64,000 nt of DNA from an uncultured Pseudomonadota bacterium (GCA_949286215.1 CASDYX010000003.1:46537-110536), one strand, 5' to 3'; counted from the first letter of the stretch, positions 41,132 through 56,425 are shown. Notes: generated by a model from the sequence alone, not told the origin. Made by a program: numbers and translations.

Positions 41132-43186
41132 ATGACTGAAGAAAATACAGAACAGGAAACGCCCCTTGAAAACATTCCCGCTACCGAACCTGAGGTAATA
41201 GAAAATTTCCAGACCGGCAGCAAAGAAAATGTTTACGTTTTAAAGGAAAGATATACTATTGACTTTTCCGCTCCTTTAACGTGGCTAGATAACAACGGCG
41301 CCAAGGCATATAAAGTTGAAGACAAAATAAATGATAAAAAAGAACTATTTGCCCTGATTTGCAACAACTTCACTTCGCCGCGCAGTTCATTATTGCCCTA
41401 CTTAAAATCGATTGATCATCCGTCAATAATGAAACTTGTTGAATATGGCGTAGTCAGTTACGGCAAAGAAAATTCTCGGAATATGGCTTTAATCTACGAG
41501 CTGCCTCAAGGCGGAAAAGTAATTGATGCTCAAGGAGCCTACTCTCTCAAAAATCAACCCGAAAAATTCAAATCATTATTATTATCAATGCTTTCGGCTG
41601 TCGAAACCCTCAAAGGTTATGGGGTAACACATCGCGCCATTAGAGCTGATAATATTTATTACAAAGATGAGACCAGAGAACAATTAGTTCTCGGAGATTG
41701 TCTAGCCTCTTTTCCTGCCTACAACCAACCATCTGCGTTTGAAACCATAGAAAGTCTAATGGCACAAAAAGAAGGAAGAGGTAATGGTTCCGACAAGGAC
41801 GACATTTACGCTGTTGGTGTTTTAGCCTTACAATTACTTCTTGGACATTCCTTTTTTGATGATATGTCGGACAAAGAAGTCCTCAGACTTAAATTAAAGA
41901 AAGGAAGCTACCTCGCATTATTGAGCAATGATAAAATTTCTGCTCAATATGCAACCATCCTCAAAGGATTGTTAAACGACAATGAAGAAGAGCGTTGGAC
42001 CTATCTCCAAACATACAACCTCTTAGAAGGAAAACCTGGAAACACTCCTCAATCCAGCACGGAACGCCCCAAAAAGTCATTAACAATCAATGGTGAAAAA
42101 GTTTACAACATAACAGAAGTTGCTTACGCTCTTCTACAAAATCCCGAAGAAGGATATGACTTATTAAAATCTGGGAAAATTACTGATTGGATTAAAAACG
42201 GTCTGGAAAACGAAAAACTCAATACTCAAATTGAGAAGTTAATTCATACCAACTCGGAAAACACCTCCAGCCGAGAACTATTAATTTCCAAGCTGTGCAT
42301 AATGTTAGCCCCTCATCTGCCTCTAAAGTACAAAACCCTATGGCTTTTTCCGGCAGGCATTCCCAAATCCATATTTTTAGCCATAAAAAATAAAGAAAAT
42401 TTAAGTATTTATTACGATTTATTCAATTCAGACTTAATAAAATTATGGTATCAAGAACAAAGTAATGTCAGAGCACCAGCTAACAGCGGAGAATTTAAAA
42501 GTTACATCAGTCGCCGCGATATGGGCTATGGAATTGACCGTATTATGTACGATTTTGATGAAGATTTACCCTGCATCAGCCCCTTACTTGGCGAAGAATT
42601 TGTAAACAGCGCTCCCCGCATTTTAAGAGCTTTAGACAACACCTATGCTCACACCAAAGTAATGTCCATGCCTTATGATCGCAACATAATGGCTTACCTT
42701 CGCTGTAAAATGGGCAAAAAAATCGATGGAATTTTAACCGATATCAATACCGGACGAGAAGCTTTGCAAGCCAGTGCTATTTTGCGCCTATACACAGATA
42801 TGCAAAATAAATACGGTCCGTCACAGCTTCCAAATTTAGCCAAATGGCTGGTAAGTGCTTGCATGTTGACAATAAAGAGTTATCACAACGTCAAATATCA
42901 AAAATATTTGGAACGAGAAGTTCTTAAAATACACAAGAATGGCAAACTTCATGAAATTACGGAAATAATTGAAAATGAAGAAGCCAGACAAAAAGACAGC
43001 ATCGACTATGCCAACGCGCTAAAGAATGCAAATTTATTAATAAGCGAAAAAAATAATTTACAAAACAATTCTGCCAAATGGGATGACGAAGCCCGAGAAG
43101 TTGCAATGCGTTTTGCAAATATTTTAGCTCTGCTAACAATGATTGCTTCTTTTGTTCTTAACCTTTTCTTTTGGATATTAAAATGA
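41132..43186 (+). CDS. eukaryotic-like protein kinase fold protein (predicted pseudokinase) with a C-terminal TM helix
   Basis: The order of kinase subdomains is recognisable: HPSIMKLVEYG; hinge ALIYELPQGG; catalytic loop GVTHRAIRADNIYY (HRD-to-HRA); LVLGDCLAS (DFG-to-DCL); DIYAVGVLALQLLLG (subdomain IX). No glycine-rich loop. C-terminal hydrophobic helix. Confidence 0.5.
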   Translation: MTEENTEQETPLENIPATEPEVIENFQTGSKENVYVLKERYTIDFSAPLTWLDNNGAKAYKVEDKINDKKELFALICNNFTSPRSSLLPYLKSIDHPSIMKLVEYGVVSYGKENSRNMALIYELPQGGKVIDAQGAYSLKNQPEKFKSLLLSMLSAVETLKGYGVTHRAIRADNIYYKDETREQLVLGDCLASFPAYNQPSAFETIESLMAQKEGRGNGSDKDDIYAVGVLALQLLLGHSFFDDMSDKEVLRLKLKKGSYLALLSNDKISAQYATILKGLLNDNEEERWTYLQTYNLLEGKPGNTPQSSTERPKKSLTINGEKVYNITEVAYALLQNPEEGYDLLKSGKITDWIKNGLENEKLNTQIEKLIHTNSENTSSRELLISKLCIMLAPHLPLKYKTLWLFPAGIPKSIFLAIKNKENLSIYYDLFNSDLIKLWYQEQSNVRAPANSGEFKSYISRRDMGYGIDRIMYDFDEDLPCISPLLGEEFVNSAPRILRALDNTYAHTKVMSMPYDRNIMAYLRCKMGKKIDGILTDINTGREALQASAILRLYTDMQNKYGPSQLPNLAKWLVSACMLTIKSYHNVKYQKYLEREVLKIHKNGKLHEITEIIENEEARQKDSIDYANALKNANLLISEKNNLQNNSAKWDDEAREVAMRFANILALLTMIASFVLNLFFWILK

Positions 43187-43686
43187 GCAAAATAAACCCT
43201 GTCAGACCTATCCGAAAACTCCCCTCACAAAGAGGAAATAGTTTTCGTTTAAATATTTTTCAAAAAGTATTATTAACTCTGGCGCTTTTAATTGCGGTAG
43301 TAACCACTCTTCCGGTAATGGTTGTTTTACTCATTGGATTACTTCCAACATTTACAATCATGATAACCGACAAAAACAACACCAACAAACTCATCATTGT
43401 CGGCTGTTTTAATCTGGCTGGTGTATTTATTTACCTATTCCATGTCATAAGCAACTTTACCATTCGCGACGCCTTTTTTATCTTCAGCGACATATTTAAT
43501 TTAATCATAATGCTTGGCTCTGCCGGATTAGGATTAATTGTCTATTTAGAAGTCCCCAATCTTTTCATTTACATTTATAAAATAATGGCACAAAAACGCC
43601 TCAAAACCATAGATGAGCAACTAAACAAATTAGCAGAAGACTGGGGTGAAGGAATTAAAGGTAACGGAGCCACGCCGACTGTTTAA
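43171..43686 (+). CDS. polytopic membrane protein (171 aa, 4 predicted TM)
   Basis: Overlaps the kinase-like gene by 16 nt. Hydrophobic segments are present. Confidence 0.4.
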   Translation: MDIKMSKINPVRPIRKLPSQRGNSFRLNIFQKVLLTLALLIAVVTTLPVMVVLLIGLLPTFTIMITDKNNTNKLIIVGCFNLAGVFIYLFHVISNFTIRDAFFIFSDIFNLIIMLGSAGLGLIVYLEVPNLFIYIYKIMAQKRLKTIDEQLNKLAEDWGEGIKGNGATPTV

Positions 43687-43687
43687 A

Positions 43688-43711
43688 GAAAATCCCCAAA
43701 TTGGGGATTTT
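43688..43711. terminator. bidirectional rho-independent terminator
   Basis: Perfect stem aaaatcccca/tggggatttt between convergent genes (43171..43686 plus, rpoH minus). Confidence 0.5.
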
Positions 43712-43712
43712 C

Positions 43713-44600
43713 TCATATCTCAAAAATAGCTTTTCGGATTTTCTTAATAGAATTTAGTTCTATTTGTCGCACCCTTTCTTTTGAAATTGCATAAAGTTTG
43801 CTCAAATCATCCAAAGTCACGGCTTTTTCCACCAACCGACGCTTAAATAAAATATCTTTTTCTCTCGGATTCAGGCAACTAAGTGCTTTCTGAAATAAGC
43901 GTTTTCGATACAGAAAAGTTTCTGAATAGGCTAATTTCTCTTCCTGATTAGGTTTTTTATCAGAAATAAAATCTATCCATTCACTACCGCTATCTGAAGA
44001 CGTATCAATTAAAGTATTAAGCGACCCATCATGAGCTTTCAAGCGCATATTCATATCCGTCACTTCTTGAACACTCACATCAAGGCTTTCAGCAATATCT
44101 CCTAAAATTTTTTGAGAGAGTTCACGATCATCCATAAGGTTCAGTTGATTTTTTATTTTTCGCAAATTAAAGAAAAGTTTTTTTTGTGCAGCTGTCGTTC
44201 CTATTTTCACCAACGACCAAGAATTTAAGATATATTTTTGAATAGAGGCCTTAATCCACCATAAAGCATAAGTTGAGAACCGAAATCCTTTATTCGGCTC
44301 AAATTTATTCACGGCATAGAGTAAACCGATATTTCCTTCTGAAATCATTTCACTAAGAGGCAAACCATAACCTCGATATTTTGCCACCACCTTGACAACC
44401 AGCCTTAAATGAGAATCAACCAATTGCTGAGCAATTTTGGGGTCACGGCTTTTTTTATATTCAACTGCCAAAGCATATTCTTTTTCCGGAGAAAGAATAG
44501 GAAATTTGCGAATACTCTGTAAATAGCGCACCAGATTTATTTCCGGTGAAAAGTCAAGTCCGTTCAGAGTGAAGTCTTTATCCATAATAGCCTCCCTCAA
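43713..44600 (-). CDS. rpoH: RNA polymerase sigma-32 factor
   Basis: RpoH box QRKLFFNLRKIK plus sigma70 regions 2 and 4. The rluD-rpoH arrangement is conserved in alphaproteobacteria. Confidence 0.9.
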   Translation of the reverse strand: MREAIMDKDFTLNGLDFSPEINLVRYLQSIRKFPILSPEKEYALAVEYKKSRDPKIAQQLVDSHLRLVVKVVAKYRGYGLPLSEMISEGNIGLLYAVNKFEPNKGFRFSTYALWWIKASIQKYILNSWSLVKIGTTAAQKKLFFNLRKIKNQLNLMDDRELSQKILGDIAESLDVSVQEVTDMNMRLKAHDGSLNTLIDTSSDSGSEWIDFISDKKPNQEEKLAYSETFLYRKRLFQKALSCLNPREKDILFKRRLVEKAVTLDDLSKLYAISKERVRQIELNSIKKIRKAIFEI

Positions 44601-44689
44601 AAATAATTGACAGAGGCAACAATATTAGAATTTCAAGATATACTCAACCTAACTTTTAGTTTTATATAAAAATAAACGCAATAATAGAA

Positions 44690-45667
44690 TTAAGAGAGAT
44701 TTAATCGGAGCAACAAATCCTCAAAGTCTGCAGGATAGGAAGAATCAAATTGCATAAATTCTTTTGTACGCGGGTGCACAAAGCCAAGACTTTTGGCATG
44801 CAATGCTTGCCTCGGAAAGTGATTAATAAAAGCTTTGAGTTCTTGAGAAACACCGCTAATTGAGGTTTTAGAACTTTTTACATAGAGTTGATCTCCAATC
44901 AAATTGCACCCAATACTTGACAAATGCACTCTGATTTGATGTGTTCTTCCGGTTTCTAGATTGCATTGCACTAATGAGGCCGTATTACCGCAAAGTTTTA
45001 GGGTTTTATAATTGGTAACCGCTCGTTTCCCTCCCATTTGCACAATTGCCATTTTTTTGCGGTCATAACGACTTCGTCCGATATTTCCTTCAATTAGTCC
45101 TTGTAAAGGATTAGGCACGCCATACACAACTGCATGGTAGGTCCGCTCAATAGAATGTTCTGCAAATTGCTCAGCCAAACCACGATGTGTCAAATCATTT
45201 TTAGCCACAACCAACAAACCACTTGTGTCTTTATCTATGCGATGAACAATACCAGGGCGTTTAACCCCTCCGATTCCTGAAAGATTATCTTTGCAATGAA
45301 AGAGCAGCGCGTTAACCAAAGTCCCGCTATGAGCCCCTGGTGCCGGATGAACTGTCATGCCGGCAGGCTTATTCACCACAATCAAATCATCATCTTCATA
45401 AACAACATTCAGGGGAATATCTTCCGGTACAGGATTAGCTTCTTCTAAAGGAGGCACTTCAACTTGAAATTCCTCTCCTTTACGAACTTTGTAAGCACAA
45501 TCAGAAATCAATCTGTCTTCGCAACTCACCATTCCTTGTTCAATTAGTCTTTGCACTTGTGAACGAGACAATTCAGAAATATTTTGCGCCAAAAATTTAT
45601 CCACCCTTGTACCGGCAGAACAATCATCAACTTCTGACGAGGTAAAAATGTTAGAATCAAATTCCAT
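44690..45667 (-). CDS. rluD: 23S rRNA pseudouridine synthase (RluA family, RluD-like)
   Basis: S4 domain and catalytic motif HRIDKDTSGLLVVAKN. Confidence 0.85.
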   Translation of the reverse strand: MEFDSNIFTSSEVDDCSAGTRVDKFLAQNISELSRSQVQRLIEQGMVSCEDRLISDCAYKVRKGEEFQVEVPPLEEANPVPEDIPLNVVYEDDDLIVVNKPAGMTVHPAPGAHSGTLVNALLFHCKDNLSGIGGVKRPGIVHRIDKDTSGLLVVAKNDLTHRGLAEQFAEHSIERTYHAVVYGVPNPLQGLIEGNIGRSRYDRKKMAIVQMGGKRAVTNYKTLKLCGNTASLVQCNLETGRTHQIRVHLSSIGCNLIGDQLYVKSSKTSISGVSQELKAFINHFPRQALHAKSLGFVHPRTKEFMQFDSSYPADFEDLLLRLNLS

Positions 45668-45752
45668 GGACTTAGCAATAAAAAATTTACACTTTCGAGA
45701 ATATAATATTTGTTAAGATACAAGTAATCTGCTAAAATGCAAGGATAAGATT

Positions 45753-46034
45753 ATGGATAAATTAAAATTAATCAAAACGATTGTCTTTTTTATAACCTTT
45801 TTATTAGTCATAGGGAGTATAAGTCTTTTAGGAATTATTTATAAAAAAGCAACCCACAAAACAGAATTGGCCTCAAGCACAATTAACCTTCAGCAAGAAA
45901 AAGGAAGTGAAATATCCTCATTTAAAGTAGAAAACGGAACAATATATCTTTTGGTAAAAGGCTCCAGCCAACCCGATCGAATTATCATCCTTCGTGAAGA
46001 TAGCGCTGAACCGCAACAAATTCATCTAAATTAG
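45753..46034 (+). CDS. small membrane-anchored protein (93 aa); first gene of the T4CP-associated cluster
   Basis: Single N-terminal TM helix. Divergent from rluD. Confidence 0.35.
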   Translation: MDKLKLIKTIVFFITFLLVIGSISLLGIIYKKATHKTELASSTINLQQEKGSEISSFKVENGTIYLLVKGSSQPDRIIILREDSAEPQQIHLN

Positions 46035-46046
46035 AGGGGTATTTTT

Positions 46047-47084
46047 ATGAGTGAGAATCAACAACCCAAAAAGGTATTCAAAAAAATAAAACACAAAAGA
46101 CCAATGTCCCAAGGTTCAAGAATTCCTCCCACGATGTCTGTTCCCGCATCAACCGAAGCAGACATTAAAGCCCTATTGGCAGAAGACACGCCGCCTCAAG
46201 AGCAAAAGGTCTCTTCCACTCCCCAAAACAATGATGAAGAAGACGAATTTGAGCGTTTACTTAATGAATTCATCAGTGCCGAATTAGATGATTCATTAGA
46301 AAATGCCCAAGAAAATTTGGAAAATGTAAAAAACGGCGACATCCAAGAACAAAAACAAACTCTTCCTTTCAGCAACACCGATGAAGAAAACGCCAACCTT
46401 CTGGAAGATCCTGAAAAATCTCTTTATCGAGCTTATCAAAATTACTTTTTTGCGATTCGAGCAATGACTGAGAGTAAAAATATTACTCCTACATCTCCCT
46501 CTCTCACCGCCGAAAATTTTTACCCTCACTACAAACCACGCCTTGGCATTCGCATTTCCAAAGAAATTATGCAAGGTTGGGATATAATGCTCAAAGTATT
46601 TCCTCAAGATTTAGCATCATTAAATCCCGGAGGAACTGATGATGAGCTTTTAGACTTTGCGGAACAAGCCAATGATGAAAATTTACAATTAGCCGTAATT
46701 TCTTATGTTGAGATTTTAATTGAAATGGAAGGCTGCGATATTCAATATGAAACACGCAAACTTAAAGCCGAGCGTCGTAAAATTGAAAAAGAGATTTACG
46801 AAGCCCATCAAGCGCGCGTAGAACGCAGCCAAAAATATATAGAAGCCATCAAAAACAAAGAATTTCCAATAGATGCCGAAAGATTGGTCAAAAACTTTTT
46901 CAAAACCTCAAATAAAGATGCCGAAGGAGCTTATAAAATGCTAACCACCAATCCGGCAACTTTTTCGCCAATTGAAATCAGCAAAATCAGGCCTAGACTC
47001 TTTGGGCTCATTAAAGTTACACCACAAGATGGCATTAGAGTAAATCGCGAAATTGGAGAATTTATAAAAAAACTAAAAGCATAA
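46047..47084 (+). CDS. acidic hypothetical protein (345 aa)
   Basis: ORF in a tight co-directional cluster. No recognised domain. Confidence 0.4.
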   Translation: MSENQQPKKVFKKIKHKRPMSQGSRIPPTMSVPASTEADIKALLAEDTPPQEQKVSSTPQNNDEEDEFERLLNEFISAELDDSLENAQENLENVKNGDIQEQKQTLPFSNTDEENANLLEDPEKSLYRAYQNYFFAIRAMTESKNITPTSPSLTAENFYPHYKPRLGIRISKEIMQGWDIMLKVFPQDLASLNPGGTDDELLDFAEQANDENLQLAVISYVEILIEMEGCDIQYETRKLKAERRKIEKEIYEAHQARVERSQKYIEAIKNKEFPIDAERLVKNFFKTSNKDAEGAYKMLTTNPATFSPIEISKIRPRLFGLIKVTPQDGIRVNREIGEFIKKLKA

Positions 47085-47154
47085 ATGTTTTTACAAAAAT
47101 ATAGACAAAAAACATTTTTAATGCTACACTAAAGTTAATGAACAAGATTTTAAG

Positions 47155-48618
47155 GTGAAGAATATGGCAGATACCCCTAAAACAGTAAGCGTAAACGAAG
47201 CATCCGCTCCTCAAGCCCCACAACCGGTACAACAACCGGCACCTCAACCTACGCCTCAAAACAATTCTGAGCCGCAAAGAACCATTGCCTTATCACAAAA
47301 CCCCAAGAAAGAAGCTCAAACCTTCCAAGGAATGACTGTTGCTCAAAAATTAAACTATCTTAATATTAAAGAAAAGCGCGGAATTTTAACTCCTGATGAA
47401 CGTAAGCAACAGGAAGAATGCCGCGAGCAATTAGCTAAAGAACAAGAAGGTGATGAAGGTGAAATCACTCCTGAAGACGGAACCAAGGTCGGCGATAAAG
47501 ATGATGAACCCAAAGACCTCTTCAAAGAACAAGACATCATTCAATATATGTATAATGAGTGGCTGTTAGGCGGCGCCAACTGGCTCTACAAAAAAACCTA
47601 CAAACAAGTTGACAAGATGTATGAGTCATTCAAAAATCGTTGTGCTCAAGCTAAAATGGATGCCCAAAAACGCAAAAATGCAACTTATGACACCATTACC
47701 ACCCGTGATAACATTGATGACAAAGCAGTCAAACTTTATGATGGGCAAAAGGCCTCTATCGACAAAGGCAAGGAAGGACTTAAAGCTGTTTTAGAAGACA
47801 TTAAAAACGGCAATATTGATGCCTCCAAAGCCACAGGCTTAACCAAACGCCTTATGCAAGAATTGCCTGAAGGCAAACGTCAACAATTTTGCACCGAAGC
47901 ACAAGCCATGATTGAAAACTTGGCTGAGAATATGAAAACCATTCATTTCGTTGCAGGTCAACTTGCTCGTGCCCAAATGGCTGAAAGCATATGTATCAAC
48001 CAAAACGCTTTCAAAAATTCCGTGCCGGCCAATGTTTTTGAGGCCATGGAAAAACGCAACGCCTTAGCTATTGCCGCCCAAATGGATGAATGGCAAAAAC
48101 AAGGCAAGAATCCGGCTAAACTCATTCAAAAATTAAAAGATGACGTTGAAAAAGCCAACAAATTTGCCGACAAGCAATACAAGAAAGAAAAATTTGATGA
48201 AGCTGGCAAAAAAGGTAAAGAAAACAAGACGCTCCGTAAAATTAACGAAACTTTAGGTATTCCCTCTGAAGAAGTCACTAAACCACAACACTACGCACCA
48301 CAAACCATGTTGCAGCATTTGATTGTATCAAACAACTTGGAAATGGGAATAACAGAAAAACTAAACAAACTAAATGGCCGTCAAATGGTTCAGGCGGCAC
48401 GGAATGACAACTATCAAGACAGGAGAGCCAATCTGCATAACCGTGTAGCTAACGCTGCACGATATAGTGAAATGATACGTTCTCGTGTCAACCCGAATGG
48501 TCTTCTTGTAATGGATACGCAAGGACAACGTCGCGCGCAACAACTCCAAGGCGTACGCCCGCAATTTAATATGGATGCCTACCGCATGGCTCAACAGCAA
48601 CAAGGAGCCACTAAGTAA
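47155..48618 (+). CDS. hypothetical protein (487 aa), Pro/Gln-rich N-terminus, predicted coiled coil
   Basis: ORF in a tight co-directional cluster. Low-complexity PQ-rich N-terminus. Confidence 0.4.
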   Translation: MKNMADTPKTVSVNEASAPQAPQPVQQPAPQPTPQNNSEPQRTIALSQNPKKEAQTFQGMTVAQKLNYLNIKEKRGILTPDERKQQEECREQLAKEQEGDEGEITPEDGTKVGDKDDEPKDLFKEQDIIQYMYNEWLLGGANWLYKKTYKQVDKMYESFKNRCAQAKMDAQKRKNATYDTITTRDNIDDKAVKLYDGQKASIDKGKEGLKAVLEDIKNGNIDASKATGLTKRLMQELPEGKRQQFCTEAQAMIENLAENMKTIHFVAGQLARAQMAESICINQNAFKNSVPANVFEAMEKRNALAIAAQMDEWQKQGKNPAKLIQKLKDDVEKANKFADKQYKKEKFDEAGKKGKENKTLRKINETLGIPSEEVTKPQHYAPQTMLQHLIVSNNLEMGITEKLNKLNGRQMVQAARNDNYQDRRANLHNRVANAARYSEMIRSRVNPNGLLVMDTQGQRRAQQLQGVRPQFNMDAYRMAQQQQGATK

Positions 48619-48620
48619 CC

Positions 48621-49118
48621 ATGCTCAAAAAGCTTCTGAAATTTTGCAAATGGCTTATGGTCGGAATAATCTGGACGTATGTATTTTTATACGCCAGCTT
48701 ATTTTTCACCAGTACAATTTGGAATTTCAACTACCTATCACTCATTGATTGGGAAATTATTTCAGCTTATTGGAATCAAGGCGGCAGCATTAAAGAAGCC
48801 ACTGATTACGGTCTATTTCTGACCTTAATTTTACTCATTCCGTTCTGGATTTTAGGCTGGAGATTTTTCTATCATCGAGATTTCATAGCCCTCATACTAG
48901 CTCCCATAAACTGGTATAATCAAAAACAAATAAAAAAATATGGTCAAAACGCCTCACGTATTGTTATAAAGAATATGGGAAGCACAGGCAAAAAAATTAA
49001 TCCCGAAGAAGTAATTGAAGCAAAATTAAAAGATTTCAAATCGAATATGGAGCACCAAGAAAAAAACTCAGATATCTTAAGAGAAAAGCTCAAAGAGAAA
49101 TTTGATAAAAAAAATTAA
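48621..49118 (+). CDS. membrane protein paralogous to the N-terminal transmembrane domain of the VirD4-like coupling protein
   Basis: TM1, aromatic periplasmic loop and TM2 (WNFNYLSLIDWEIISAYWNQGG...LFLTLILLIPFWILGW) align by eye with the same region of 49178 and of the VirD4-like protein (YWNWLKQISNY...LWLPILPFISLPFG). No ATPase domain. Confidence 0.45.
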   Translation: MLKKLLKFCKWLMVGIIWTYVFLYASLFFTSTIWNFNYLSLIDWEIISAYWNQGGSIKEATDYGLFLTLILLIPFWILGWRFFYHRDFIALILAPINWYNQKQIKKYGQNASRIVIKNMGSTGKKINPEEVIEAKLKDFKSNMEHQEKNSDILREKLKEKFDKKN

Positions 49119-49177
49119 ATAAAGAATTAACCAATAAGAGATAAACTTAACGCAAAACAAATGGGAGAAAATAACCT

Positions 49178-50488
49178 TTGAAACCCTTTTTAATAACAGT
49201 CCGCATTATATTTGTAGGCATCTTCTGGAGCATATTTTTTCTGGAAGGGATAAGGGTTATTATGCTCACCAACTGGCGTTTTGATATTTTCCGTTCCCGC
49301 CATTGGGAGCATTTATACAATCTATGGTACCAAGGTTGGACCATACAAGCTCCCAAAGAATGGGCATTTATCTTAATCATTTTAACATTTATTCCTTTAT
49401 GGTTAACCGGCTGGGCTGCTTTAAGCTTGATAGAGTGGGATAAACTATTGGTTAAATTGGTCGTTTACCCAATAAAACTCTTTCGAAAACTATTCTACAA
49501 ACAAGTAACTGTCATTGCGACTAAAAAGCATGGTCAACCAGTAAAAAAGAAAAGATCTTACAAAGAAATAAGACCTCGTAGTATCCGAGCTCCGATTGAT
49601 GACCGCATAGAAGATGCACTGCCTCGTCCGACAACATTGAGCAACCAAGTCACCAAAACACATAGCGCTCCCAAAATAACACCGCCTACTTTAGCCGCTT
49701 TGAGTTCTCCTCCTCCGAGTGAGCCTAAAACTTTTGATCATTCATTATTCCAATTTGACGATGGCGAAAGTGACGATTTCGACTTTAATTTTGATGCTTT
49801 TGATACTCCGCCTGCACCTCAAAAAGAAGAAAGTCCTAAGTCCGAGGAAAAAAGAGCTCCCCGAGAAAAAGAAAAAAACAAAGAAAATCGGGACTTTAGA
49901 GATACGAGAGAAAAGAAAGACTTTAGCAAAAGCCCTAAAGAGGGACGTAAACCTCAAGCTAATAATCGCGGAGAAAATCAAGTTCAGCGTGGCGGCTCTC
50001 TTATGGATGTTCTCAAACAAAAAGGCTATGAAATCATTACCGGAGCAACCCTTGCCAATAATTTAATAGACTTTATCGGTGTTGCCGATAAGAAAATTTG
50101 TGTTTGCCTGCTTGATAAAGAGCCCGGAGATTGGTTAGCCGATGAAGAAAGATTTAACGACGAGGAACCTCTCTGGTTTTCGGAAAGCAGCCATAGAATT
50201 TCTCCGGTCAGAAAAATTACGTTATCCTGCCAAGCTTTAGAAGAAAAATTAAAAGAAGCAGATTTAAATTTCAGCGTCATACCTTATGTCATTATTCAAC
50301 TCGGAAACATCATCAATGCCGAAGATATGTTTGAAATCTGGGATGATATGAAAGTTAATGTAACTCGTATTGACAGAGGTACTCCAAAAGAAATTAAGCT
50401 TTTTGCCAAAACTTTGGAAGAAGCTGAAAATCACATAGATAACGATAAATTTGAAAAGCTCAAAAAATTAATTCGTAATATAAAGTAA
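49178..50488 (+). CDS. membrane protein with a T4CP-N-terminal-like TM domain, a Pro/Glu/Lys-rich linker and a C-terminal NERD-like (nuclease-related) domain
   Basis: The N-terminus is paralogous to 48621 and to the VirD4 TM domain (HWEHLYNLWYQGW...FILIILTFIPLWLTGW). The C-terminal block GATLANNLIDFIGVADKKICVCLLDKEPG resembles the NERD core (IDHvvi..Givvievk). A low-complexity charged linker of about 150 aa separates them. Confidence 0.45.
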   Translation: MKPFLITVRIIFVGIFWSIFFLEGIRVIMLTNWRFDIFRSRHWEHLYNLWYQGWTIQAPKEWAFILIILTFIPLWLTGWAALSLIEWDKLLVKLVVYPIKLFRKLFYKQVTVIATKKHGQPVKKKRSYKEIRPRSIRAPIDDRIEDALPRPTTLSNQVTKTHSAPKITPPTLAALSSPPPSEPKTFDHSLFQFDDGESDDFDFNFDAFDTPPAPQKEESPKSEEKRAPREKEKNKENRDFRDTREKKDFSKSPKEGRKPQANNRGENQVQRGGSLMDVLKQKGYEIITGATLANNLIDFIGVADKKICVCLLDKEPGDWLADEERFNDEEPLWFSESSHRISPVRKITLSCQALEEKLKEADLNFSVIPYVIIQLGNIINAEDMFEIWDDMKVNVTRIDRGTPKEIKLFAKTLEEAENHIDNDKFEKLKKLIRNIK

Positions 50489-50511
50489 AAATAACCTAAA
50501 AGAGTAAGAAG

Positions 50512-52746
50512 ATGGAAAAACAAGGCGAAGAATGGGAAGAGTACAATAACGCGGTCCGTTGGGTATTGATAACCTTCATCATAACATTTCTGGTTACTGC
50601 AGCTTTGGCTATTATCTCTATGCCGTTGGGCTATCTAATTGGTAGCGGCGTATCCAAAGATACCTTAGGTGAAGTCGGAAAATTTTTACAAACCATATTC
50701 AACTCACCTGATTACCTGTTTTCCAGATATTGGAATTGGCTCAAGCAAATATCCAATTACCATGGTCCATTTTCTGTTGGGCTATGGCTTCCGATTCTCC
50801 CTTTTATTTCTTTACCTTTTGGTATTGTTATCGGCACCGTAAGCAACCCTTACCGTTTTCAATCCAATATTCACGGTTCCGCCCGCATTGCCGAGTTAAA
50901 AGACATTAAAAAGATGGGCTTACTTGATGGTTTCTGCATGGTTGTCGGCAAATACAAAGGGCATCTGTTAATGTTAAAAGAAACCCTTTCAACCTTGTGC
51001 TGCGCACCTCCGGGTACCGGTAAAACTGCCGGAGTAGTTATTCCGACAATTTTCCACTCTCACGGCATGAGCATTGTGGTAAACGACCCAAAACCTGAGT
51101 TGTGCTTCACTACCACGGGTGCCAGAGCCAAAGATGGACCGGTATTTGTCATTAACTGGGGTGCCGAAGATAATCCGGCAGAAGGTATTTATTACCCGAG
51201 CTGGAATCCTTTGTCGCCGAATGCTTTGCCAGCCCCTGGTCCTGACCGTGATATGTATGTGGACTCAATGTGTAATATTTTGGTTGAAGACCCGAAAGGC
51301 GGCGCAGACCCGCACTGGTCAAAAACCGGTCGTGCCGCACTAACCGGCTTCATACACTTTATTGCCTCCAAATGCGAGCGAGCTCGCGCCAACGACTACT
51401 TTATCGGCCGTGTTTATGAAGGTAAACTCGACGATGAAGATAAAAGAGTTCTGGAAGGCTACTATTTGGAAATGCGTGATCCTATGGCCGCTCAAGCCAT
51501 TCAAAACCTCCATAGCGGGACTTTAACGATTGATAACTATCTCCCGATAGGTACTTGGTCATTATTGCCCGAAAAATGGATTGGCCACGAATCTTGCCTA
51601 GCAATGATTTTGGAGTGGATTACCGAGTCGCAAATTAAACAATCCCAAGAAATCAAGCGCCGTCTTGATGAAGGTGACCAAATGGCCGCCATGGCAGACC
51701 CAATGCGTGATATGTTGGAAGAAGCCATAGAAGAAGCCAGAAAATACGGCTACTCACCACGTTGTATTGTAGAACTTAGCCAATTAAGTTCTATGCCTGA
51801 TAAAGAGCGTGGTTCCGTATTGTCCACCGGTTTCTCAGGTATTGGTATTTTCAAAAACTCAGCCGTTGTATCGCGTACCAGCTTTTCTGACTTACACTTT
51901 AAGGATTTGCGCGGTATGAAGGACCCGATTACCGGCGAGTGGAAACCAATTTCGGTTTATCTGTCAGTTAACCAAGTTGATGCGAGAGCCTTGGGTGTTA
52001 TTTCAGGAACATTTATTGAGTTAATGTCCTCTTACCTAATTGCTAACCCGCCAAAATTTCAAAACAAAACCGATGGTCAAATGGGACCTTTCCCAACCTT
52101 GTTTGTATTGGACGAGTTTCCGCAAATGCCTAAATTAAAAGCCATCATTGATGGTCCGGCGGTCGGACGTGGTCAAAAAGTATCATACTTGCTGATTGGC
52201 CAAGACTTAGGACAAATTTCGGGTAAATACGGAAAAGATGACTTGGAAACGGTTATTTCTACCACGGCTTGCAAAGTTATTTTATCTCAAAACAACGAGC
52301 AAACCGCCCAACGTTTCTCCAAAATGATTGGTAACAAAACCGTCCAAACCACCTCATTCTCAAAGAACGAAGGTATCAGCTTCCAAAAAGGCTCAAACCC
52401 GTTCAGTAAAAACGTTAGTTACCAATTACAAGGAACATCTGTAATTAGTACAACGCAATTGCTGAGCTTGCCGATGCTCAAACAAGTAGTTCTGATGCAA
52501 GGTTTCATTGATCGTCCGATTATGGCAGATGCCCCTCGTTTTTATCTGGATAAGCAAATGTTGGCCTTATCAAAACTTCCGCCATCACCTTATGTTCCGG
52601 ATTGGATTGTTGCCCAACGAGAAGATATCAATGAAGATATGCTCTCCAAACTGGGTATTGAATATGATCCGAACGAAGATTATGATGACGAAGACTTTGA
52701 TGATGACGACTATAATGAAGAAGACATCAATACAAACCCAAATTAA
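50512..52746 (+). CDS. virD4: type IV secretion/conjugation coupling protein, VirD4/TraG family (744 aa), with an acidic C-terminal tail
   Basis: Two N-terminal TM helices. The HGSARIA motif aligns with the VirD4 HGTARWA block. Walker A APPGTGKTAGVVIPT (compare VirD4 APTRSGKGVGVVIPT). LFVLDEFPQMPKL aligns with the VirD4 LFLLDEF..LGKL block. The D/E-rich C-terminus is DYDDEDFDDDDYNEED. Confidence 0.85.
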   Translation: MEKQGEEWEEYNNAVRWVLITFIITFLVTAALAIISMPLGYLIGSGVSKDTLGEVGKFLQTIFNSPDYLFSRYWNWLKQISNYHGPFSVGLWLPILPFISLPFGIVIGTVSNPYRFQSNIHGSARIAELKDIKKMGLLDGFCMVVGKYKGHLLMLKETLSTLCCAPPGTGKTAGVVIPTIFHSHGMSIVVNDPKPELCFTTTGARAKDGPVFVINWGAEDNPAEGIYYPSWNPLSPNALPAPGPDRDMYVDSMCNILVEDPKGGADPHWSKTGRAALTGFIHFIASKCERARANDYFIGRVYEGKLDDEDKRVLEGYYLEMRDPMAAQAIQNLHSGTLTIDNYLPIGTWSLLPEKWIGHESCLAMILEWITESQIKQSQEIKRRLDEGDQMAAMADPMRDMLEEAIEEARKYGYSPRCIVELSQLSSMPDKERGSVLSTGFSGIGIFKNSAVVSRTSFSDLHFKDLRGMKDPITGEWKPISVYLSVNQVDARALGVISGTFIELMSSYLIANPPKFQNKTDGQMGPFPTLFVLDEFPQMPKLKAIIDGPAVGRGQKVSYLLIGQDLGQISGKYGKDDLETVISTTACKVILSQNNEQTAQRFSKMIGNKTVQTTSFSKNEGISFQKGSNPFSKNVSYQLQGTSVISTTQLLSLPMLKQVVLMQGFIDRPIMADAPRFYLDKQMLALSKLPPSPYVPDWIVAQREDINEDMLSKLGIEYDPNEDYDDEDFDDDDYNEEDINTNPN

Positions 52747-52772
52747 AAGAGGCTGATGAAATGAGGTAAGAG

Positions 52773-53372
52773 ATGTGGGAGTGGTCAAATCAAAAACATC
52801 AAAATAACTTAATACTTCCTTATAATGATGATGACTCCTCCCTGCTCTCAGCCTATGATGATTTGCTCACCAAAGGCATTCCGCCTTCAGCCCAACCCTT
52901 TCAAAATGCGCTTAACAAACAGCATCTGCAAGACATTGCGGAGATGGAGCACAAACTTGAAAGAAAATTAAAAGAACTACACCTAACCACCTTTCATTTG
53001 GAAAAACACGCCTATCTTCCCCTCACTTGGGAAAAACAAACCTCCCTTTATCAAGAAACTTGGAAATTAAGAAACATCTTTCTGAAAAGGCTCGCCTATA
53101 CAGATGAATACGCTCTCAAAACAATAGGTCTGAACTTTCAAGACATAAATCTGCTAAAACAAGGAATTACCCCCGAAAACTTTAATGTTCATATTAAAAT
53201 TCCGTTTGACTTTGGAGGTAAGGCTGAATTAAATAATTTATGCTTAATGCGTGCCCACCCCACACACGAAAATTTACACAAAATCATAGACATTCAGTTA
53301 AATTCCAACTTTTTGCGCCAACAAAAAATGTTATTACTGCCAATTTCCGAGGGAAAAATCTGTCATGACTGA
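52773..53372 (+). CDS. HNH/EndoVII-fold nuclease domain protein (toxin-like)
   Basis: C-terminal NVHIKIPFDFGGKAELNNLCLMRAHPTHENLH fits the HNH core (H-h-h-P-x3-GG-x5-N-L-x2-L-C-x3-H-x2-H). 27 nt downstream of virD4 and overlaps the following SUKH gene. Confidence 0.5.
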   Translation: MWEWSNQKHQNNLILPYNDDDSSLLSAYDDLLTKGIPPSAQPFQNALNKQHLQDIAEMEHKLERKLKELHLTTFHLEKHAYLPLTWEKQTSLYQETWKLRNIFLKRLAYTDEYALKTIGLNFQDINLLKQGITPENFNVHIKIPFDFGGKAELNNLCLMRAHPTHENLHKIIDIQLNSNFLRQQKMLLLPISEGKICHD

Positions 53373-53781
53373 AAATTTACCGATAATTTATTTTCCCCCA
53401 ACCCTAATAAAAGAAATTGAAGAGAGCAACAATTGGCTTCTCATGCAAAAATTTTGCGCCCTGCCGGAAGAATATCAAAAATTTCTCCTCAACACCAACG
53501 GTCTAACTTGCAATGGACTAGATTTATATGGAAGTTGCGCTCATTATAGAGAAACAAAGAATTACAAATTTCCTTCCATTCAAGACATCAACAAAAATTT
53601 CATCAACTATCGTTTTTTCAAAGATAAAGTCATCATCGGCAATTGGAACGAGAGTCTGATTTATTACGATAAACGAGGCAACTACTATGCTCTTGCCGAC
53701 AGAATCAATCTGCGTTCAAGATACGAGGCCGATAGTTTTGAAAAAATCTTAAACTACCTTATGGAAGCCATAAAATCTTAA
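53365..53781 (+). CDS. SUKH (SMI1/KNR4) family immunity-like protein
   Basis: ALPEEYQKFLLNTNGL and VIIGNWNESLIYYDKRGNYYAL match the SUKH-1 signature. Its start overlaps the HNH gene stop (ATGACTGA). Confidence 0.55.
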   Translation: MTENLPIIYFPPTLIKEIEESNNWLLMQKFCALPEEYQKFLLNTNGLTCNGLDLYGSCAHYRETKNYKFPSIQDINKNFINYRFFKDKVIIGNWNESLIYYDKRGNYYALADRINLRSRYEADSFEKILNYLMEAIKS

Positions 53782-53786
53782 ATAGA

Positions 53787-53894
53787 CCAGACGAACCCTT
53801 GGGTTCGAGCCCGATGCAATTACAAAAACATTAAAATTTAAAAACAAAAAATCTCCCTCACGGGAGATTTTTAAATGGGGCGAACGATCGGGCT
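53787..53894. repeat. 108-bp direct repeat, copy A (tRNA-like T-arm fragment, terminator hairpin, last 19 nt of the tRNA-His 3' end); att-like
   Basis: Near-identical to 54037..54143 (one 1-nt indel). It ends exactly where copy B continues into the intact tRNA-His. Confidence 0.7.
53846..53871. terminator. bidirectional hairpin terminator (within repeat copy A); terminates the plus-strand T4CP cluster
   Basis: Perfect stem aaaatctccc/gggagatttt with loop tcac. T-run downstream on plus, and a T-rich run on minus. Confidence 0.5.
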
Positions 53895-54036
53895 GAAGAA
53901 AAGAAAACAATCCTGTGAATTGTTTTCTTGATTCAGGCGCAGGTTTGTTAGCTTTGAGACAAGAGAAACACCGTCGAAAAAGCGTTACAAACCAAGTGAC
54001 CGCAGCGAGTTAGCGAAATCTCATTGAGCTTACGAG

Positions 54037-54143
54037 CCAGACGAACCCTTGGGTTCGAGCCCGATGCAATTACAAAACATTAAAATTTAAAAACAAAAAA
54101 TCTCCCTCACGGGAGATTTTTAAATGGGGCGAACGATCGGGCT
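54037..54143. repeat. 107-bp direct repeat, copy B (overlaps the 3' end of tRNA-His)
   Basis: See copy A. Confidence 0.7.
54096..54121 (-). terminator. hairpin terminator immediately downstream of tRNA-His
   Basis: Same gggagatttt/aaaatctccc stem as copy A, 3 nt beyond the tRNA CCA end on the minus strand. Confidence 0.5.
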
Positions 54144-54201
54144 CGAACCGACGACAACCGGTACCACAAACCGGGGCTCTACCAACTGAGCTACGTTCGC
54201 C
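54125..54201 (-). tRNA. tRNA-His (anticodon GUG) with encoded G-1 and CCA
   Basis: The reverse complement folds as G(-1)-GCGAACG...; anticodon loop TTGTGGT; T-loop TTCGAGC; acceptor 3' strand CGTTCGC, then discriminator C, then CCA. The extra 5' G opposite the discriminator C is the tRNA-His hallmark. Confidence 0.85.
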
Positions 54202-54365
54202 ATCGCCATTGAGTTTTACAAACAATAATAAATAAAGTCAAGCTAAAAATAACATCAAAAGATTATTTATAAAAAAAATTTTTCACGCATCTGAAATTAA
54301 TAATTTATTTGCATTTTAACGCTAATACTAATAGCAAGAAAATTTCAGAGAAAAAGTAAAGAAGA

Positions 54366-55625
54366 ATGATAACCTTTAACAAATTAGCATTTGTACACAA
54401 AGCTCTATATGCACTCTGTGGCTTAGGGCTTGTTTTATTGACCACAAAACCGGCAACTGCATCTACATCATCCATCATCATTGATGCCGAAAGCGGAGAT
54501 ATTTTATCATCTTCCAACGCCGACGAATTACGTTATCCTGCTTCTCTTACCAAAGTTATGACCTTATACATAACTTTTGACGCTCTCAATAAAGGAATCA
54601 TTAAATTAGACGATGACTTAAAAGTAAGTCGTCACGCAGCCAACATGGCTCCATCCAGATTAGGTCTTCGCCCCGGAGAAACGGTCAAAGTAAAAACTTG
54701 TATTGAAGCTTTAATTGTTAAATCCGCCAATGATTGCGCTACTGTTTTAGCAGAAAACCTTGGTTATAGCGAAAAGAACTTTGCCCAAACAATGACGCAA
54801 GTTGCCAAAGAATTAGGAATGAAAAACACCACTTTCCGTAACGCCAACGGATTGCCTAACAAAGCTCAAAAAACCACGGCACGCGATATGGCTTTGCTTG
54901 GTGCTGCAATGTATCACCACTTTCCGCAATACTACAAACTATTTTCATTGAAAAAATTTACCTATGAAGGCAAAACCATCTACACCCACAATAATATCTT
55001 AAAAACCTTCGAAGGTGCCGATGGTATGAAAACCGGCTTTACCAACGCCGCTGGCTTTAACATTATTACCTCTGCTCAACGTGATGGACATCGCGTCATT
55101 GCTGTTACCATGGGACACAACACCGCCAAAGAGCGTGACCGCCATGTTGCCAGAATGATGGATAAAGGTCTAAAAAGATTAGCCTTAAACGACCGTTTCA
55201 AAGATTCCAACATGTATGCTAACTTAGAGAGCAATAAGGTCATTAAAGAAGAAAACACCGCTCAAACCGCCGCAATTACACCGGCCAACAAAAAAACCGA
55301 TTGGGAAACCTCCTCTTCCAAAGAAGAAAATACTCAAGATGATAAAGCACAATGGGGAATTCAAGTTGGTGCCTTTTCAAACTATTCCAAAGCCAGAAGT
55401 TATGCTCTGAAAATTAAATCCGAAGCTAAAAAATTAGCCTCCAATCCAATAGATATTGAGCCTGTAGCAAATGGTTCTGCAATCATTTATCGCTCAAAGA
55501 TTGTCGGCATGGGAAAATCAACTGCGGATAAAGCCTGCCAGAACTTGAAACGCAAAAATAAATCGTGTATCGTAGTCGCTATAAAGAACGATAACTCACT
55601 CTTGTTAGCGAATAGTCAATACTAA
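54366..55625 (+). CDS. D-alanyl-D-alanine carboxypeptidase (PBP5/6-like, S11) with a C-terminal SPOR domain
   Basis: Signal peptide; SxxK ASLTKVMT; SxN KSAND; KTG KTGFT. The C-terminal segment of about 80 aa resembles SPOR (WGIQVGAFSNYSKARSYALKI...). Confidence 0.8.
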   Translation: MITFNKLAFVHKALYALCGLGLVLLTTKPATASTSSIIIDAESGDILSSSNADELRYPASLTKVMTLYITFDALNKGIIKLDDDLKVSRHAANMAPSRLGLRPGETVKVKTCIEALIVKSANDCATVLAENLGYSEKNFAQTMTQVAKELGMKNTTFRNANGLPNKAQKTTARDMALLGAAMYHHFPQYYKLFSLKKFTYEGKTIYTHNNILKTFEGADGMKTGFTNAAGFNIITSAQRDGHRVIAVTMGHNTAKERDRHVARMMDKGLKRLALNDRFKDSNMYANLESNKVIKEENTAQTAAITPANKKTDWETSSSKEENTQDDKAQWGIQVGAFSNYSKARSYALKIKSEAKKLASNPIDIEPVANGSAIIYRSKIVGMGKSTADKACQNLKRKNKSCIVVAIKNDNSLLLANSQY

Positions 55626-56425
55626 TGGAACCACAAAAGAAAGCACATATCATCGTCGTCAGTAACGAAAAAGGCGGCACAGGGAAATCAACTATTTCCA
55701 TGCACTTGGCCATTAAGTTATTGCAAGAAGGTTTTTCTGTTGCCACAATTGATATGGACGGACGTCAAGGTACACTTTCACGTTATCTGGAAAACCGCAA
55801 AAATTTTTGCGAAAAGCACAAATTAGATTTACCGATTCCGGCATTTTATAAATTTGAACCTCAAGAAAATTATACATTAATTCCAGCAGACCGTGGGCGC
55901 GTCAATCATGAAATAACCAAATTAATTCCTTGTTATGACGCCATAATTATTGATACCCCTGGTAACAAAAACTATCTTTTTGAAGAAGCTCATAAATTTG
56001 CCGACACACTCATCACCCCGATTTCTGACAGCCTAATAGACCTCAACGTCTTGTCAGAAATTGATTTTGAATCAGGGCACATCGGCAAACCGGGCCACTA
56101 CGCAAGCTACATTTGGGAAGTAAAAAAATATCTGGCTTCACAAGGCAAAACCTACCTCAACTGGATAGTTGTCGGCAATAAAATCTCAGCTCTAAATTCG
56201 CGCAACAAAGCCCAATTTTTTGAATATTTGGAAAAGCTCTCCAAACTTTATGGCTTTAGAATAACACCCGGATTTAAGGATAGAGTTATCTATAAAGAAC
56301 TATTTTTGGAAGGCCTGACGGTTTTGGATATGCAAACCCCAGAATTAAAGCGCAAAATGAGCGTTTCGCACATTGCCGCCAAAAGAGAGATTAGAGCCTT
56401 AGCAGAATTTATTTGTCCGGAATAA
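55625..56425 (+). CDS. mipZ: division-plane positioning ATPase MipZ (ParA/MinD family)
   Basis: Deviant Walker A NEKGGTGKST. Collinear, strong similarity to Caulobacter MipZ, including GFRITPGFKDRVIYKELFLEGLTVLDM (compare GFRIGPGLRDRVIYRELFPFGLTIADL). Confidence 0.8.
   Translation: MEPQKKAHIIVVSNEKGGTGKSTISMHLAIKLLQEGFSVATIDMDGRQGTLSRYLENRKNFCEKHKLDLPIPAFYKFEPQENYTLIPADRGRVNHEITKLIPCYDAIIIDTPGNKNYLFEEAHKFADTLITPISDSLIDLNVLSEIDFESGHIGKPGHYASYIWEVKKYLASQGKTYLNWIVVGNKISALNSRNKAQFFEYLEKLSKLYGFRITPGFKDRVIYKELFLEGLTVLDMQTPELKRKMSVSHIAAKREIRALAEFICPE

Follow-up and report, generated by a model that had tools for sequence, protein, structure and literature searches.

A conserved type IV coupling-protein operon with undescribed membrane partners in uncultured gut alphaproteobacteria

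A 64-kb stretch of DNA from an uncultured Pseudomonadota bacterium (GCA_949286215.1 CASDYX010000003.1:46537-110536; hereafter the window, in whose positions all coordinates are given) carries at 45753-53781 a cluster of eight open reading frames (ORF1 to ORF8), among them the gene of a VirD4/TraG-type type IV coupling protein (T4CP), ORF6. This cluster is a vertically inherited core-chromosome operon of an uncultured gut alphaproteobacterium ('Azospirillum sp. CAG:260' group). We consider it, with a probability of about 0.6, to be the coupling module of a split chromosomal type IV secretion system (T4SS) of the kind found in Rickettsia (rvh), equipped with new accessory subunits and with an optional DNase effector. 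The architecture of the operon is undescribed; the logic of a split chromosomal T4SS, of a coupling module and of toxin/immunity pairs is already known.

The coupling protein and its companions

The eight reading frames lie on one strand, at the coordinates that had been assigned to them in an earlier reading made from the sequence alone (the sequence-only reading):

45753..46034, plus strand: ORF1, 93 aa, one N-terminal transmembrane (TM) segment (10-28), weak similarity to DUF6476
46047..47084, plus strand: ORF2, 345 aa, soluble, candidate substrate or adaptor
47155..48618, plus strand: ORF3, 484-487 aa, basic, rich in Q, P and K, candidate substrate or scaffold
48621..49118, plus strand: ORF4, 165 aa, inner-membrane protein with two TM segments (12-30, 65-83)
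49178..50488, plus strand: ORF5, 436 aa, two-TM domain, linker and nuclease-fold domain
50512..52746, plus strand: ORF6, 744 aa, VirD4/TraG-type T4CP, assigned by Pfam, TM and motif evidence
52773..53372, plus strand: ORF7, 199 aa, colicin/pyocin-type HNH motif at the C-terminus, putative DNase effector
53365..53781, plus strand: ORF8, 138 aa, SUKH/YrhA-type immunity-like protein, overlapping ORF7 by 8 nt

The genes are tightly packed, as had been reported, with successive intergenic gaps of 12, 70/79, 2, 59, 23, 26 and -8 nt. Gene callers applied to identical contigs returned the same genes, except that ORF3 was started at ATG 47164 (484 aa) and not at GTG 47155; the ATG is the more likely start. 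Relatives were collected by a scan with one genome per species, which gave more than 500, and the analysis was carried out on the best 80, all of them metagenome-assembled genomes (MAGs) from gut or rumen whose T4CP is 73-98% identical to ORF6.

ORF6 had been described as a full-length T4CP, and its Pfam domains, two-TM anchor, HGSARIA block, Walker motifs and acidic tail are all present. The Pfam model T4SS-DNA_transf (PF02534) is matched at 1.3e-55 (189.5 bits, cutoff 20.1), TraG-D_C at 82.5 bits (cutoff 22) and TrwB_AAD_bind at 60.2 bits (cutoff 20.5). The hydrophobic segments of the N-terminus span residues 18-36 and 89-107; HGSARIA is found at 121-127, Walker A (APPGTGKT) at 165-172 and Walker B (LFVLDEF) at 530-536, with K171 and D534 invariant in 17 relatives. 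The C-terminal tail is acidic, with a net charge of -15 over the last 30 residues and a median of -10 across T4CP homologs. On this sequence evidence ORF6 is an unambiguous and intact VirD4/TraG coupling protein.

Within the known T4CP family ORF6 represents, by the same evidence, a new subfamily. Its top NCBIfam score is 138 bits with the CD1115 family, whose cutoff is 250, and since it falls below the cutoff of every curated NCBIfam VirD4/TraG subfamily it has to be treated as distinct from them; in particular, it reaches 133 bits with the VirD4 model PRK13897, whose cutoff is 728, and is therefore not an ortholog by that model. A conserved insert at about 285-430, where the all-alpha domain sits, is specific to the subfamily. 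When the subfamily profile was compared with PDB, the best match was Cag5 of H. pylori (7.7e-13), and DotL was matched weakly.

ORF4 and ORF5 are paralogous two-TM inner-membrane proteins and constant companions of the T4CP (ORF4 is present in 75 related loci), and as partners of a T4CP they are previously undescribed. They had been taken for two truncated paralogs of the membrane domain of the T4CP; in fact, the paralogy is between ORF4 and residues 1-124 of ORF5 (BLASTP 1e-11; hhalign 98.8%, E=9.5e-17). Descent of the two from the T4CP membrane domain was rejected, no similarity to the T4CP N-terminus being detectable by BLASTP (E>0.2) or by hhalign (probabilities of 2.6% and 0.3%).

ORF5 is composed of a highly conserved two-TM region (1-90), a disordered charged linker (about 118-272), which carries the conserved acidic/aromatic motif FDxxDDDFDFxFDxFD, and a C-terminal domain (about 273-436), where the most invariant element of the whole protein is found, the acidic loop GDWLADEERFNDEEPLWFSESSHRISPV. 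An AlphaFold2 model of this last domain, built from three sequences, has a core pLDDT (predicted local distance difference test) of 68-89 and an alpha-beta-beta-beta-alpha-beta topology, by which the modelled domain is classed as a restriction-endonuclease-like (PD-(D/E)xK) fold. The model therefore supports a NERD-like fold for the C-terminal domain of ORF5, which by its long disordered linker tethers this PD-(D/E)xK-fold domain to the cytoplasmic face of the membrane. The NERD-like domain that had been proposed is retained as far as the fold is concerned, but the Pfam NERD match is below threshold (0.02, 15.8 bits, cutoff 22.1) and the canonical catalytic motif was not found, the conserved residues being D298 and D313-K314-E315 and not D...(D/E)xK. 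The weak NERD match recurs in 12 of 26 ORF5 homologs, with a best E-value of 0.0034.

ORF2 and ORF3 are lineage-specific soluble partners. The N-terminus of ORF2 is acidic and variable and contains a DDEFExLL motif; it is followed by a conserved C-terminal region (about 220 aa) and a positive C-terminal tail. ORF2 is kept in 63 related loci. The protein is acidic overall, but in 63/63 homologs the last 30 residues carry a net charge of +3 to +9; an AlphaFold2 model from the single sequence was unusable (pLDDT 43). ORF3 is fast-evolving, its homologs being 376-893 aa long and in most relatives 12-28% identical, and the sole conserved stretch is DxFKExDIIxYMYNxWLLGG at residues 120-140 approximately. 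No family was found for ORF2 or ORF3 in Pfam, NCBIfam, PADLOC, PHROGs or PDB sequences, and the same searches gave no described family for ORF2-ORF5 as a whole. A phage origin was also considered and was rejected, there being no noteworthy PHROG matches.

Two claims of the sequence-only reading are upheld by these searches. Profile searches of each protein confirm that none of the proteins encoded with the T4CP is recognisable as VirB or Tra, and the combination of a T4CP, a membrane-anchored nuclease-fold protein, an HNH protein and a SUKH protein matches no described operon, as far as these databases go.

Conservation in relatives and comparative evidence on a possible VirB channel

The relatives have been deposited as 'Azospirillum sp. 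CAG:260 / 47_25 / 51_20' or as 'uncultured Alphaproteobacteria bacterium', and the lineage probably corresponds to the GTDB order RF32. In the sister species, L005, the cluster is syntenic at about 0.998-1.020 Mb on the 2.04-Mb contig CBFFOQ010009871.1 of GCA_965643355.1, where the T4CP is 93.8% identical, MipZ 89.8%, Pgm 87.6%, RpoH 86.9% and RluD 72.6%. With respect to the closest relative, L010, the ratio of nonsynonymous to synonymous substitution rates (dN/dS) is lowest in the T4CP (0.02) and lies at 0.04-0.13 in the seven remaining genes (ORF1 0.13, ORF2 0.08, ORF3 0.07).

Among the 80 loci, nearly all those with enough flanking sequence share the order rpoH-rluD-(ORF1)-ORF2-ORF3-ORF4-ORF5-T4CP. 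The downstream side is variable and is occupied by ORF7 and ORF8, by an unrelated membrane protein of about 240 aa, by housekeeping genes (ligA, Mur ligase, nrdR, nusB) or by convergent genes. Given the synteny from ORF2 to the T4CP and the patchy distribution of ORF7/ORF8, the core module extends from ORF2 to the T4CP. Recurrence of the neighbourhood in other genomes, which had been named as a check, was thus seen in nearly all of about 80 species for ORF2-ORF3-ORF4-ORF5-T4CP, but in about one quarter for the HNH/SUKH genes.

Membership of all eight genes, as proposed from packing and shared direction, is less secure for ORF1, which possibly lies outside the cluster. Its Pfam match to DUF6476 (0.003) is below the cutoff; it was seen by tblastn in about two thirds of the related loci with upstream flank and is absent in L099, a locus with a more distant T4CP described below. 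Its membership in the module is uncertain, and it may be a simple neighbour.

GC content is level across the cluster and the same as in the flanks. We also observed that regional GC content differs greatly between close relatives, being about 0.39 in the window (41000-58700) and 0.486 in L005 despite 93.8% T4CP identity.

No virB/tra, relaxase or integrase genes were found by annotations and profile scans in the rest of the 64-kb window, as the sequence-only reading had stated. The T4CP is accordingly an 'orphan' within the window and within +-10 kb in the relatives, but this status is not established genome-wide, and three lines of comparison bear on it.

The first comes from L099, whose GC content is 0.60 and whose T4CP is 49% identical to ORF6. 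Its gene order is fliK-flgD-flgE, an ORF5 homolog, a small two-TM protein, the T4CP, an ORF7 homolog, an ORF8 homolog and a VirB7-like gene, so that next to the ORF8 homolog there are a VirB7-like lipoprotein, VirB8, a SPOR-fused VirB9 (VirB9-SPOR) and, at the VirB10 position, a giant repeat protein. The small two-TM protein (129 aa) was tried as an ORF4 homolog and was rejected (hhalign 5%); it is a positional analogue only.

A search with the VirB9 of L099 retrieved chromosomal operons of the order virB8a-virB7-virB8b-virB9-(giant or TrbI-type virB10)-virB11 in MAGs of gut alphaproteobacteria. Four of them lie at these positions:

L146:8282-18898, virB operon of a gut alphaproteobacterial MAG
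L152:8280-19146, virB operon of a gut alphaproteobacterial MAG
L153:9062-18281, virB operon of a gut alphaproteobacterial MAG
L155:4753-7912, virB operon of a gut alphaproteobacterial MAG

In these four operons VirB9 is fused to SPOR, and the VirB10 position is taken by a giant repeat protein of 1930-2216 aa with no Pfam match. A duplicated virB8 with virB7 between the copies was seen in L146, L152 and L155, none of which is tied to a genome with an ORF6-type T4CP. The chromosomal virB operons of the gut MAGs sit among core genes and have no virD4 after virB11, which means that their T4CP must lie elsewhere.

The third line is provided by plasmids. The closest plasmid T4CPs are those of Erythrobacter aureus, Microvirga and Sphingosinicella megaplasmids, with 32-35% identity over 80-92% of the length. 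In the neighbourhoods of Erythrobacter aureus and Microvirga the T4CP gene closes a complete virB2-virB11-virD4 operon, and a MobA/MobL relaxase gene is nearby in the Erythrobacter record. The VirB8 and VirB9 of these plasmids are homologous to the chromosomal VirB8 and VirB9 of the relatives. Small proteins encoded between virB11 and virD4 in Microvirga were inspected as possible analogues of ORF4, and no resemblance was seen.

Taken together, L099, the virB operons of the MAGs and the plasmid operons indicate that the T4CP module most likely serves a VirB-type channel encoded elsewhere. The sequence-only reading had named a complete virB or tra operon that pairs with this virD4 as evidence against a new system; L099, the MAG operons and the plasmids supply such evidence in part and indirectly.

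In the mechanism that we propose, the T4CP hexamer, with ORF4 and ORF5 alongside it as accessory receptor subunits, would dock substrates and hand them to the VirB channel; ORF4 and ORF5 would in this respect be functional analogues, not homologues, of the DotM-type partners of T4CPs. Substrates would probably be recognised by positive C-terminal tails, which could be bound by the acidic tail of the T4CP and by the acidic loop of ORF5; a positive C-terminal signal on type IVA substrates is known from the Agrobacterium literature. ORF2 and ORF3 would be the first candidates for substrates or adaptors, and ORF7, where present, would be a DNase effector delivered to neighbouring bacteria, from which ORF8 would shield the producer. 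Killing by T4SSs with nuclease effectors and adjacent immunity genes has been described (PMC11253643, PMC6536674).

Two further observations were made among the loci collected. A separate chromosomal T4CP clade, 28-41% identical, was found at L095:8468-12130, L113:8674-12265, L096:8963-12223 and L144:8966-12124 (also in L100, L106 and L121), on large contigs from human gut, the longest of 669 kb, and is another 'orphan' T4CP architecture. A pentapeptide-repeat protein is encoded directly upstream of the T4CP in L095, L096, L113 and L144, the four loci scanned with Pfam; the context is housekeeping (pepN, rarA/mgsA, a flavodiiron protein), with no sign of virB in these loci. In addition, L044 (JAISVX010000003.1) and P0287 (MDR2902232.1), alphaproteobacterial MAG contigs from one termite-gut submission, carry the NCBI label 'Lactobacillaceae/Lactobacillales bacterium', which looks like a taxonomy-mapping error.

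The ORF7/ORF8 pair and the boundaries of the operon

ORF7 had been read as an HNH nuclease. The alignment with its homologs and with pyocin AP41 favours this assignment, but no Pfam model supports it. In 19 homologs H140, K142, P144, G149, N155, H165 and H169 are invariant, and the family pattern is PEN..H.K.P..FGG.....N.........H...H. The sole PDB match of the family profile is the DNase of pyocin AP41, aligned on the HNH motif at a weak E=0.09, and neither ORF7 nor the 19 homologs matched any Pfam family at E<=0.1 beyond chance matches, nor any Pfam HNH model. ORF7 proteins constitute one non-polymorphic family whose N-terminus is fixed; the invariance of this N-terminus, MWEWS..., suggests a recognition element.

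ORF8 is SUKH-like, as had been proposed: it is above the cutoff of the NCBIfam YrhA family (1.2e-15, 57.7 bits, cutoff 55) and marginally below that of Pfam SMI1_KNR4 (SUKH-1; 2.7e-5, 25.2 bits, cutoff 25.4), and SUKH_5 and SUKH_6 were also matched.

The two genes strictly co-occur, in 20-25 of the 80 related loci, and where present they follow directly after the T4CP on the same strand, 24-90 nt downstream in most loci. Their presence in about one quarter of the species makes them an optional cargo and not the reason why the module exists. Contact-dependent toxin delivery, one of the functions suggested by the sequence-only reading, fits the ORF7/ORF8 pair.

The ORF7 homolog of L099 (L099:12169-13125; hhalign 98.8%) has 319 aa and a P/Q/A-rich N-terminus. 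H140 is replaced by M, H165 by A and H169 by E, and the SUKH partner is retained. From these substitutions it is possibly an inactivated toxin kept at the T4CP, and the ORF7/ORF8 pair may have, or may once have had, a structural role there.

Beyond the genes, the following features were located at the two ends of the operon:

45710..45738, plus strand: promoter-like site (consensus scan), TTGTTA-17-TAAAAT with TG, between the divergent genes rluD and ORF1, which are 85 nt apart
53787..54143: tandem duplication of about 250 bp at the downstream boundary, outside the operon
53847-53872, bidirectional: terminator hairpin AAAAATCTCCC-TCAC-GGGAGATTTTT, palindromic, G+C-centred, flanked by A and T runs
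54125-54200, minus strand: tRNA-His, convergent with the cluster, sharing the terminator

The promoter-like site has 9/12 consensus matches and is weak evidence, the regional count of such sites being not above that of shuffles. A hairpin terminator at 53847-53872 closes the cluster, as had been noted, and an identical copy lies at 54096-54121, directly after the convergent tRNA-His; in the RNA search no element besides tRNA-His was found. In the duplication, a unit of about 108 nt is directly repeated at a period of about 250 nt; the unit contains the 3' 19 nt of tRNA-His together with the terminator and some 40 nt more. The extra copy is absent in the same-species contig L001, and in the sister strains L006 and L007 the same gap holds a 188-aa HNH_3 ORF. 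The 3' end of tRNA-His appears to be a minor hot spot of insertion. Between the repeat copies lie 140 nt with a hairpin that is found three times in L011.

The rest of the window is of a housekeeping and flagellar nature (relA/spoT, rpoZ, gcrA, motAB, PFOR, flgFGAH, flaF, pheST, an rpoH-like sigma factor gene, rluD, a D-Ala carboxypeptidase gene, mipZ, pgm, fliQR/flhB). The stretch 41132-43686 encodes a Ser/Thr protein kinase-like protein of 684 aa, whose TM segment is C-terminal, and after it, overlapping, a multi-TM protein of 167-171 aa; this pair is kept upstream of rpoH/rluD in many related loci.

Alternative explanations, known systems and significance

Several observations weigh against a coupling module that works with a distant VirB channel. 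No virB was found within +-10 kb in any of the 80 related loci, and no virB contig could be linked to a genome with a close (at least 73% identical) T4CP, nor to the genome analysed here; MDR2902232 and MDR1694181, which share the label 'Lactobacillales/Lactobacillaceae', proved to come from different assemblies. The VirB9 matches listed come from low-abundance lineages with 1-5 contigs each and the ORF6-type T4CP is present on thousands of contigs, a restriction that may reflect mere divergence or the scope of the matches listed. None of ORF2-ORF5 is homologous to a known component, adaptor or effector of T4SSs, and ORF7 carries no XVIPCD or other known T4SS signal. As the ORF5 motif (D298...D313-K314-E315) is atypical of an active site, neither a nuclease nor a pure receptor role is established for this protein from its sequence; and because the L099 homolog of ORF7 lacks the catalytic His residues, ORF7/ORF8 may not be a simple toxin/immunity module. 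Literature on T4SSs in RF32 or 'Azospirillum sp. CAG' was searched for and none was found.

Some of these points would be accommodated if the lineage had no VirB channel at all and ORF4-ORF5-T4CP were an autonomous inner-membrane machine, domesticated and of housekeeping grade, in which an FtsK/HerA-superfamily pump would be paired, by analogy with HerA-NurA, with a membrane-tethered protein of PD-(D/E)xK nuclease fold. Such a machine might handle or transport DNA, be it in export, in uptake or at the chromosome, perhaps by linking a nuclease activity to the processing or translocation of DNA at the inner membrane, or might serve another core function. We regard this as unlikely, and equally so the wider proposition that a VirB-less state extends to the whole order of gut alphaproteobacteria together with a non-secretion function of the machine. 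In its favour are the absence of virB from the window and from the flanks in the 80 species, the conservation of the T4CP at a housekeeping level, the predicted nuclease fold of ORF5 and the fact that abundant human-gut members are not among the VirB9 matches listed. The trio is kept together even in L099, with the small two-TM protein there as a positional analogue only, and the second chromosomal T4CP clade stands beside pentapeptide-repeat proteins with no virB seen nearby. The pentapeptide-repeat family includes DNA mimics, and on the wider proposition that clade, in other gut bacteria, would perhaps likewise have no VirB channel. These points are opposed by L099, where the module adjoins virB7/8/9, and by the nearest characterised or plasmid relatives, all of which belong to full T4SSs; moreover, no T4CP is known to translocate alone across a whole diderm envelope. 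The most conserved element of ORF5, an acidic loop, is an unlikely DNA-binding element, and the lysine of the canonical (D/E)xK is out of place. The self-contained orphan system favoured by the sequence-only reading is thus a minority reading in view of the comparative data.

Two other suggestions of that reading, a degraded mobilisable element and a defence system, fare worse. It is hardly credible that the cluster is what is left of a conjugative or mobilisable element that had integrated, lost its relaxase and mating-pair genes and is now decaying. The T4CP family does stem from conjugative T4SSs, and a tRNA-His with a duplicated 3' end lies just downstream, but the repeat spans about 250 bp only and not the cluster, no integrase, relaxase or element-end repeat was found near 45.7 kb, GC equals that of the flanks, and every gene is under purifying selection (dN/dS 0.02-0.13). 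The fixed synteny next to rluD in about 80 species, with T4CP identities of 73-98%, and the confinement of variability to ORF7/ORF8 exclude a decaying element and argue also against a defence island; of what marks an integrative conjugative or mobilisable element, neither a relaxase or integrase in the window nor repeats bracketing the cluster were found. A conflict system directed at phages or plasmids, with the T4CP as its ATPase and with nucleases, is very improbable. The cluster does unite an ATPase with a PD-(D/E)xK fold and an HNH motif, and PADLOC gave weak matches (ORF8 KwaB-like, 6.4e-4; T4CP mads_8, 0.011), yet both are marginal and partial, the T4CP is a true secretion-type ATPase, having a transmembrane domain and TraG-D_C, and the module is universal, slow-evolving and vertically inherited at a fixed locus, unlike defence islands, HNH/SUKH being its sole patchy part.

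That ORF7/ORF8 have nothing to do with the T4CP, and form a free-standing toxin-immunity or addiction module in a variable spot before tRNA-His, is quite unlikely in our opinion. The pair is found in about one quarter of the species only, the gap also takes the HNH_3 ORF and the 250-bp duplication, and no known T4SS signal was found; against this, the pair always stands directly after the T4CP where present, on the same strand and in most loci at 24-90 nt, the homologous pair of L099 occupies the same place in a different genomic context, and the MWEWS N-terminus is invariant.

The proposed coupling module of a split, rvh-like T4SS can be compared with several known systems. In Rickettsiales the rvh T4SS genes are dispersed in chromosomal 'islets', and in Rickettsia one islet carries virB11 and, after it, virD4 (PMC2653234); C-terminal tails of effectors bind RvhD4, and rvh has been proposed as a killing system in extracellular Rickettsiales (PMC11077975). 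On the proposed reading both would be chromosomal, vertically inherited, alphaproteobacterial P-type T4SSs with split gene sets, and the order virB8a-virB7-virB8b-virB9-virB10-virB11 of the relatives is that of rvh islet C. However, the ORF6 T4CP is in an operon of its own with four or five unrelated genes and not after virB11, ORF4 and ORF5 have no rvh counterpart, and the rvh-like gene order was seen in relatives. In the chromosomal X-T4SS of Xanthomonadales the T4CP recruits antibacterial effectors encoded beside immunity genes, among them the nuclease TfdA of S. maltophilia (PMC11253643, PMC6536674, PMC8740702). There, the C-terminal XVIPCD of the effectors (X-Tfe) is bound by the all-alpha domain of VirD4, whereas the C-terminus of ORF7 is the HNH motif itself; the lineage (at phylum level) and the T4CP subfamily also differ, and the effector pair is optional here.

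In the Dot/Icm system (DotL-DotM-DotN-IcmSW-LvgA) the T4CP is a multi-subunit receptor, in which the cytoplasmic domain of DotM recognises charged substrate signals. The resemblance lies in a dedicated inner-membrane partner encoded directly upstream of the T4CP and in DotL as a weak PDB match of the T4CP profile, but ORF4/ORF5 have no sequence or fold similarity to DotM, ORF6 is type IVA and VirD4-like, and no homologues of DotM, DotN, IcmS or IcmW were found among ORF1-5, ORF7 and ORF8 in Pfam, NCBIfam and PDB. The plasmid virB2-virB11-virD4 operons of Erythrobacter aureus and Microvirga sp. VF16 contain the closest annotated T4CPs, and VirB8 and VirB9 homologous to those of the relatives; they differ in being complete T4SSs with MobA/MobL relaxase, primase, TopB and SSB, and in having no homologues of ORF2-ORF5 or of the HNH/SUKH pair. 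The arrangement of an HNH beta-beta-alpha-Me motif followed by an overlapping SUKH-family gene is shared with the HNH/SUKH pairs of polymorphic toxins, with colicin E9 and with pyocin AP41, but ORF7 is short (199 aa) and has no recognisable Rhs, CdiA, PAAR, LXG or receptor-binding domain. The SUKH family was reportedly described by Zhang, Iyer and Aravind in 2011 as an immunity family against nucleic-acid-degrading toxins.

Members of this uncultured lineage are very common in the guts of humans and animals: more than 7000 assembly blocks contain the T4CP of the sister species. A T4CP that is as conserved as RpoH and MipZ points to a system central to the lifestyle of these bacteria, be it interbacterial killing or host interaction. 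The module offers a new T4CP subfamily, whose substrate-domain insert is conserved, two undescribed obligatory membrane partners, of which the nuclease-fold one may be a new kind of substrate receptor, and candidate effectors, including a putative HNH DNase with SUKH immunity. Should the T4CP instead turn out to need no VirB channel, it would be the first example of a coupling protein domesticated to stand alone, and it would change the way in which 'orphan' T4CPs are read in genome surveys.

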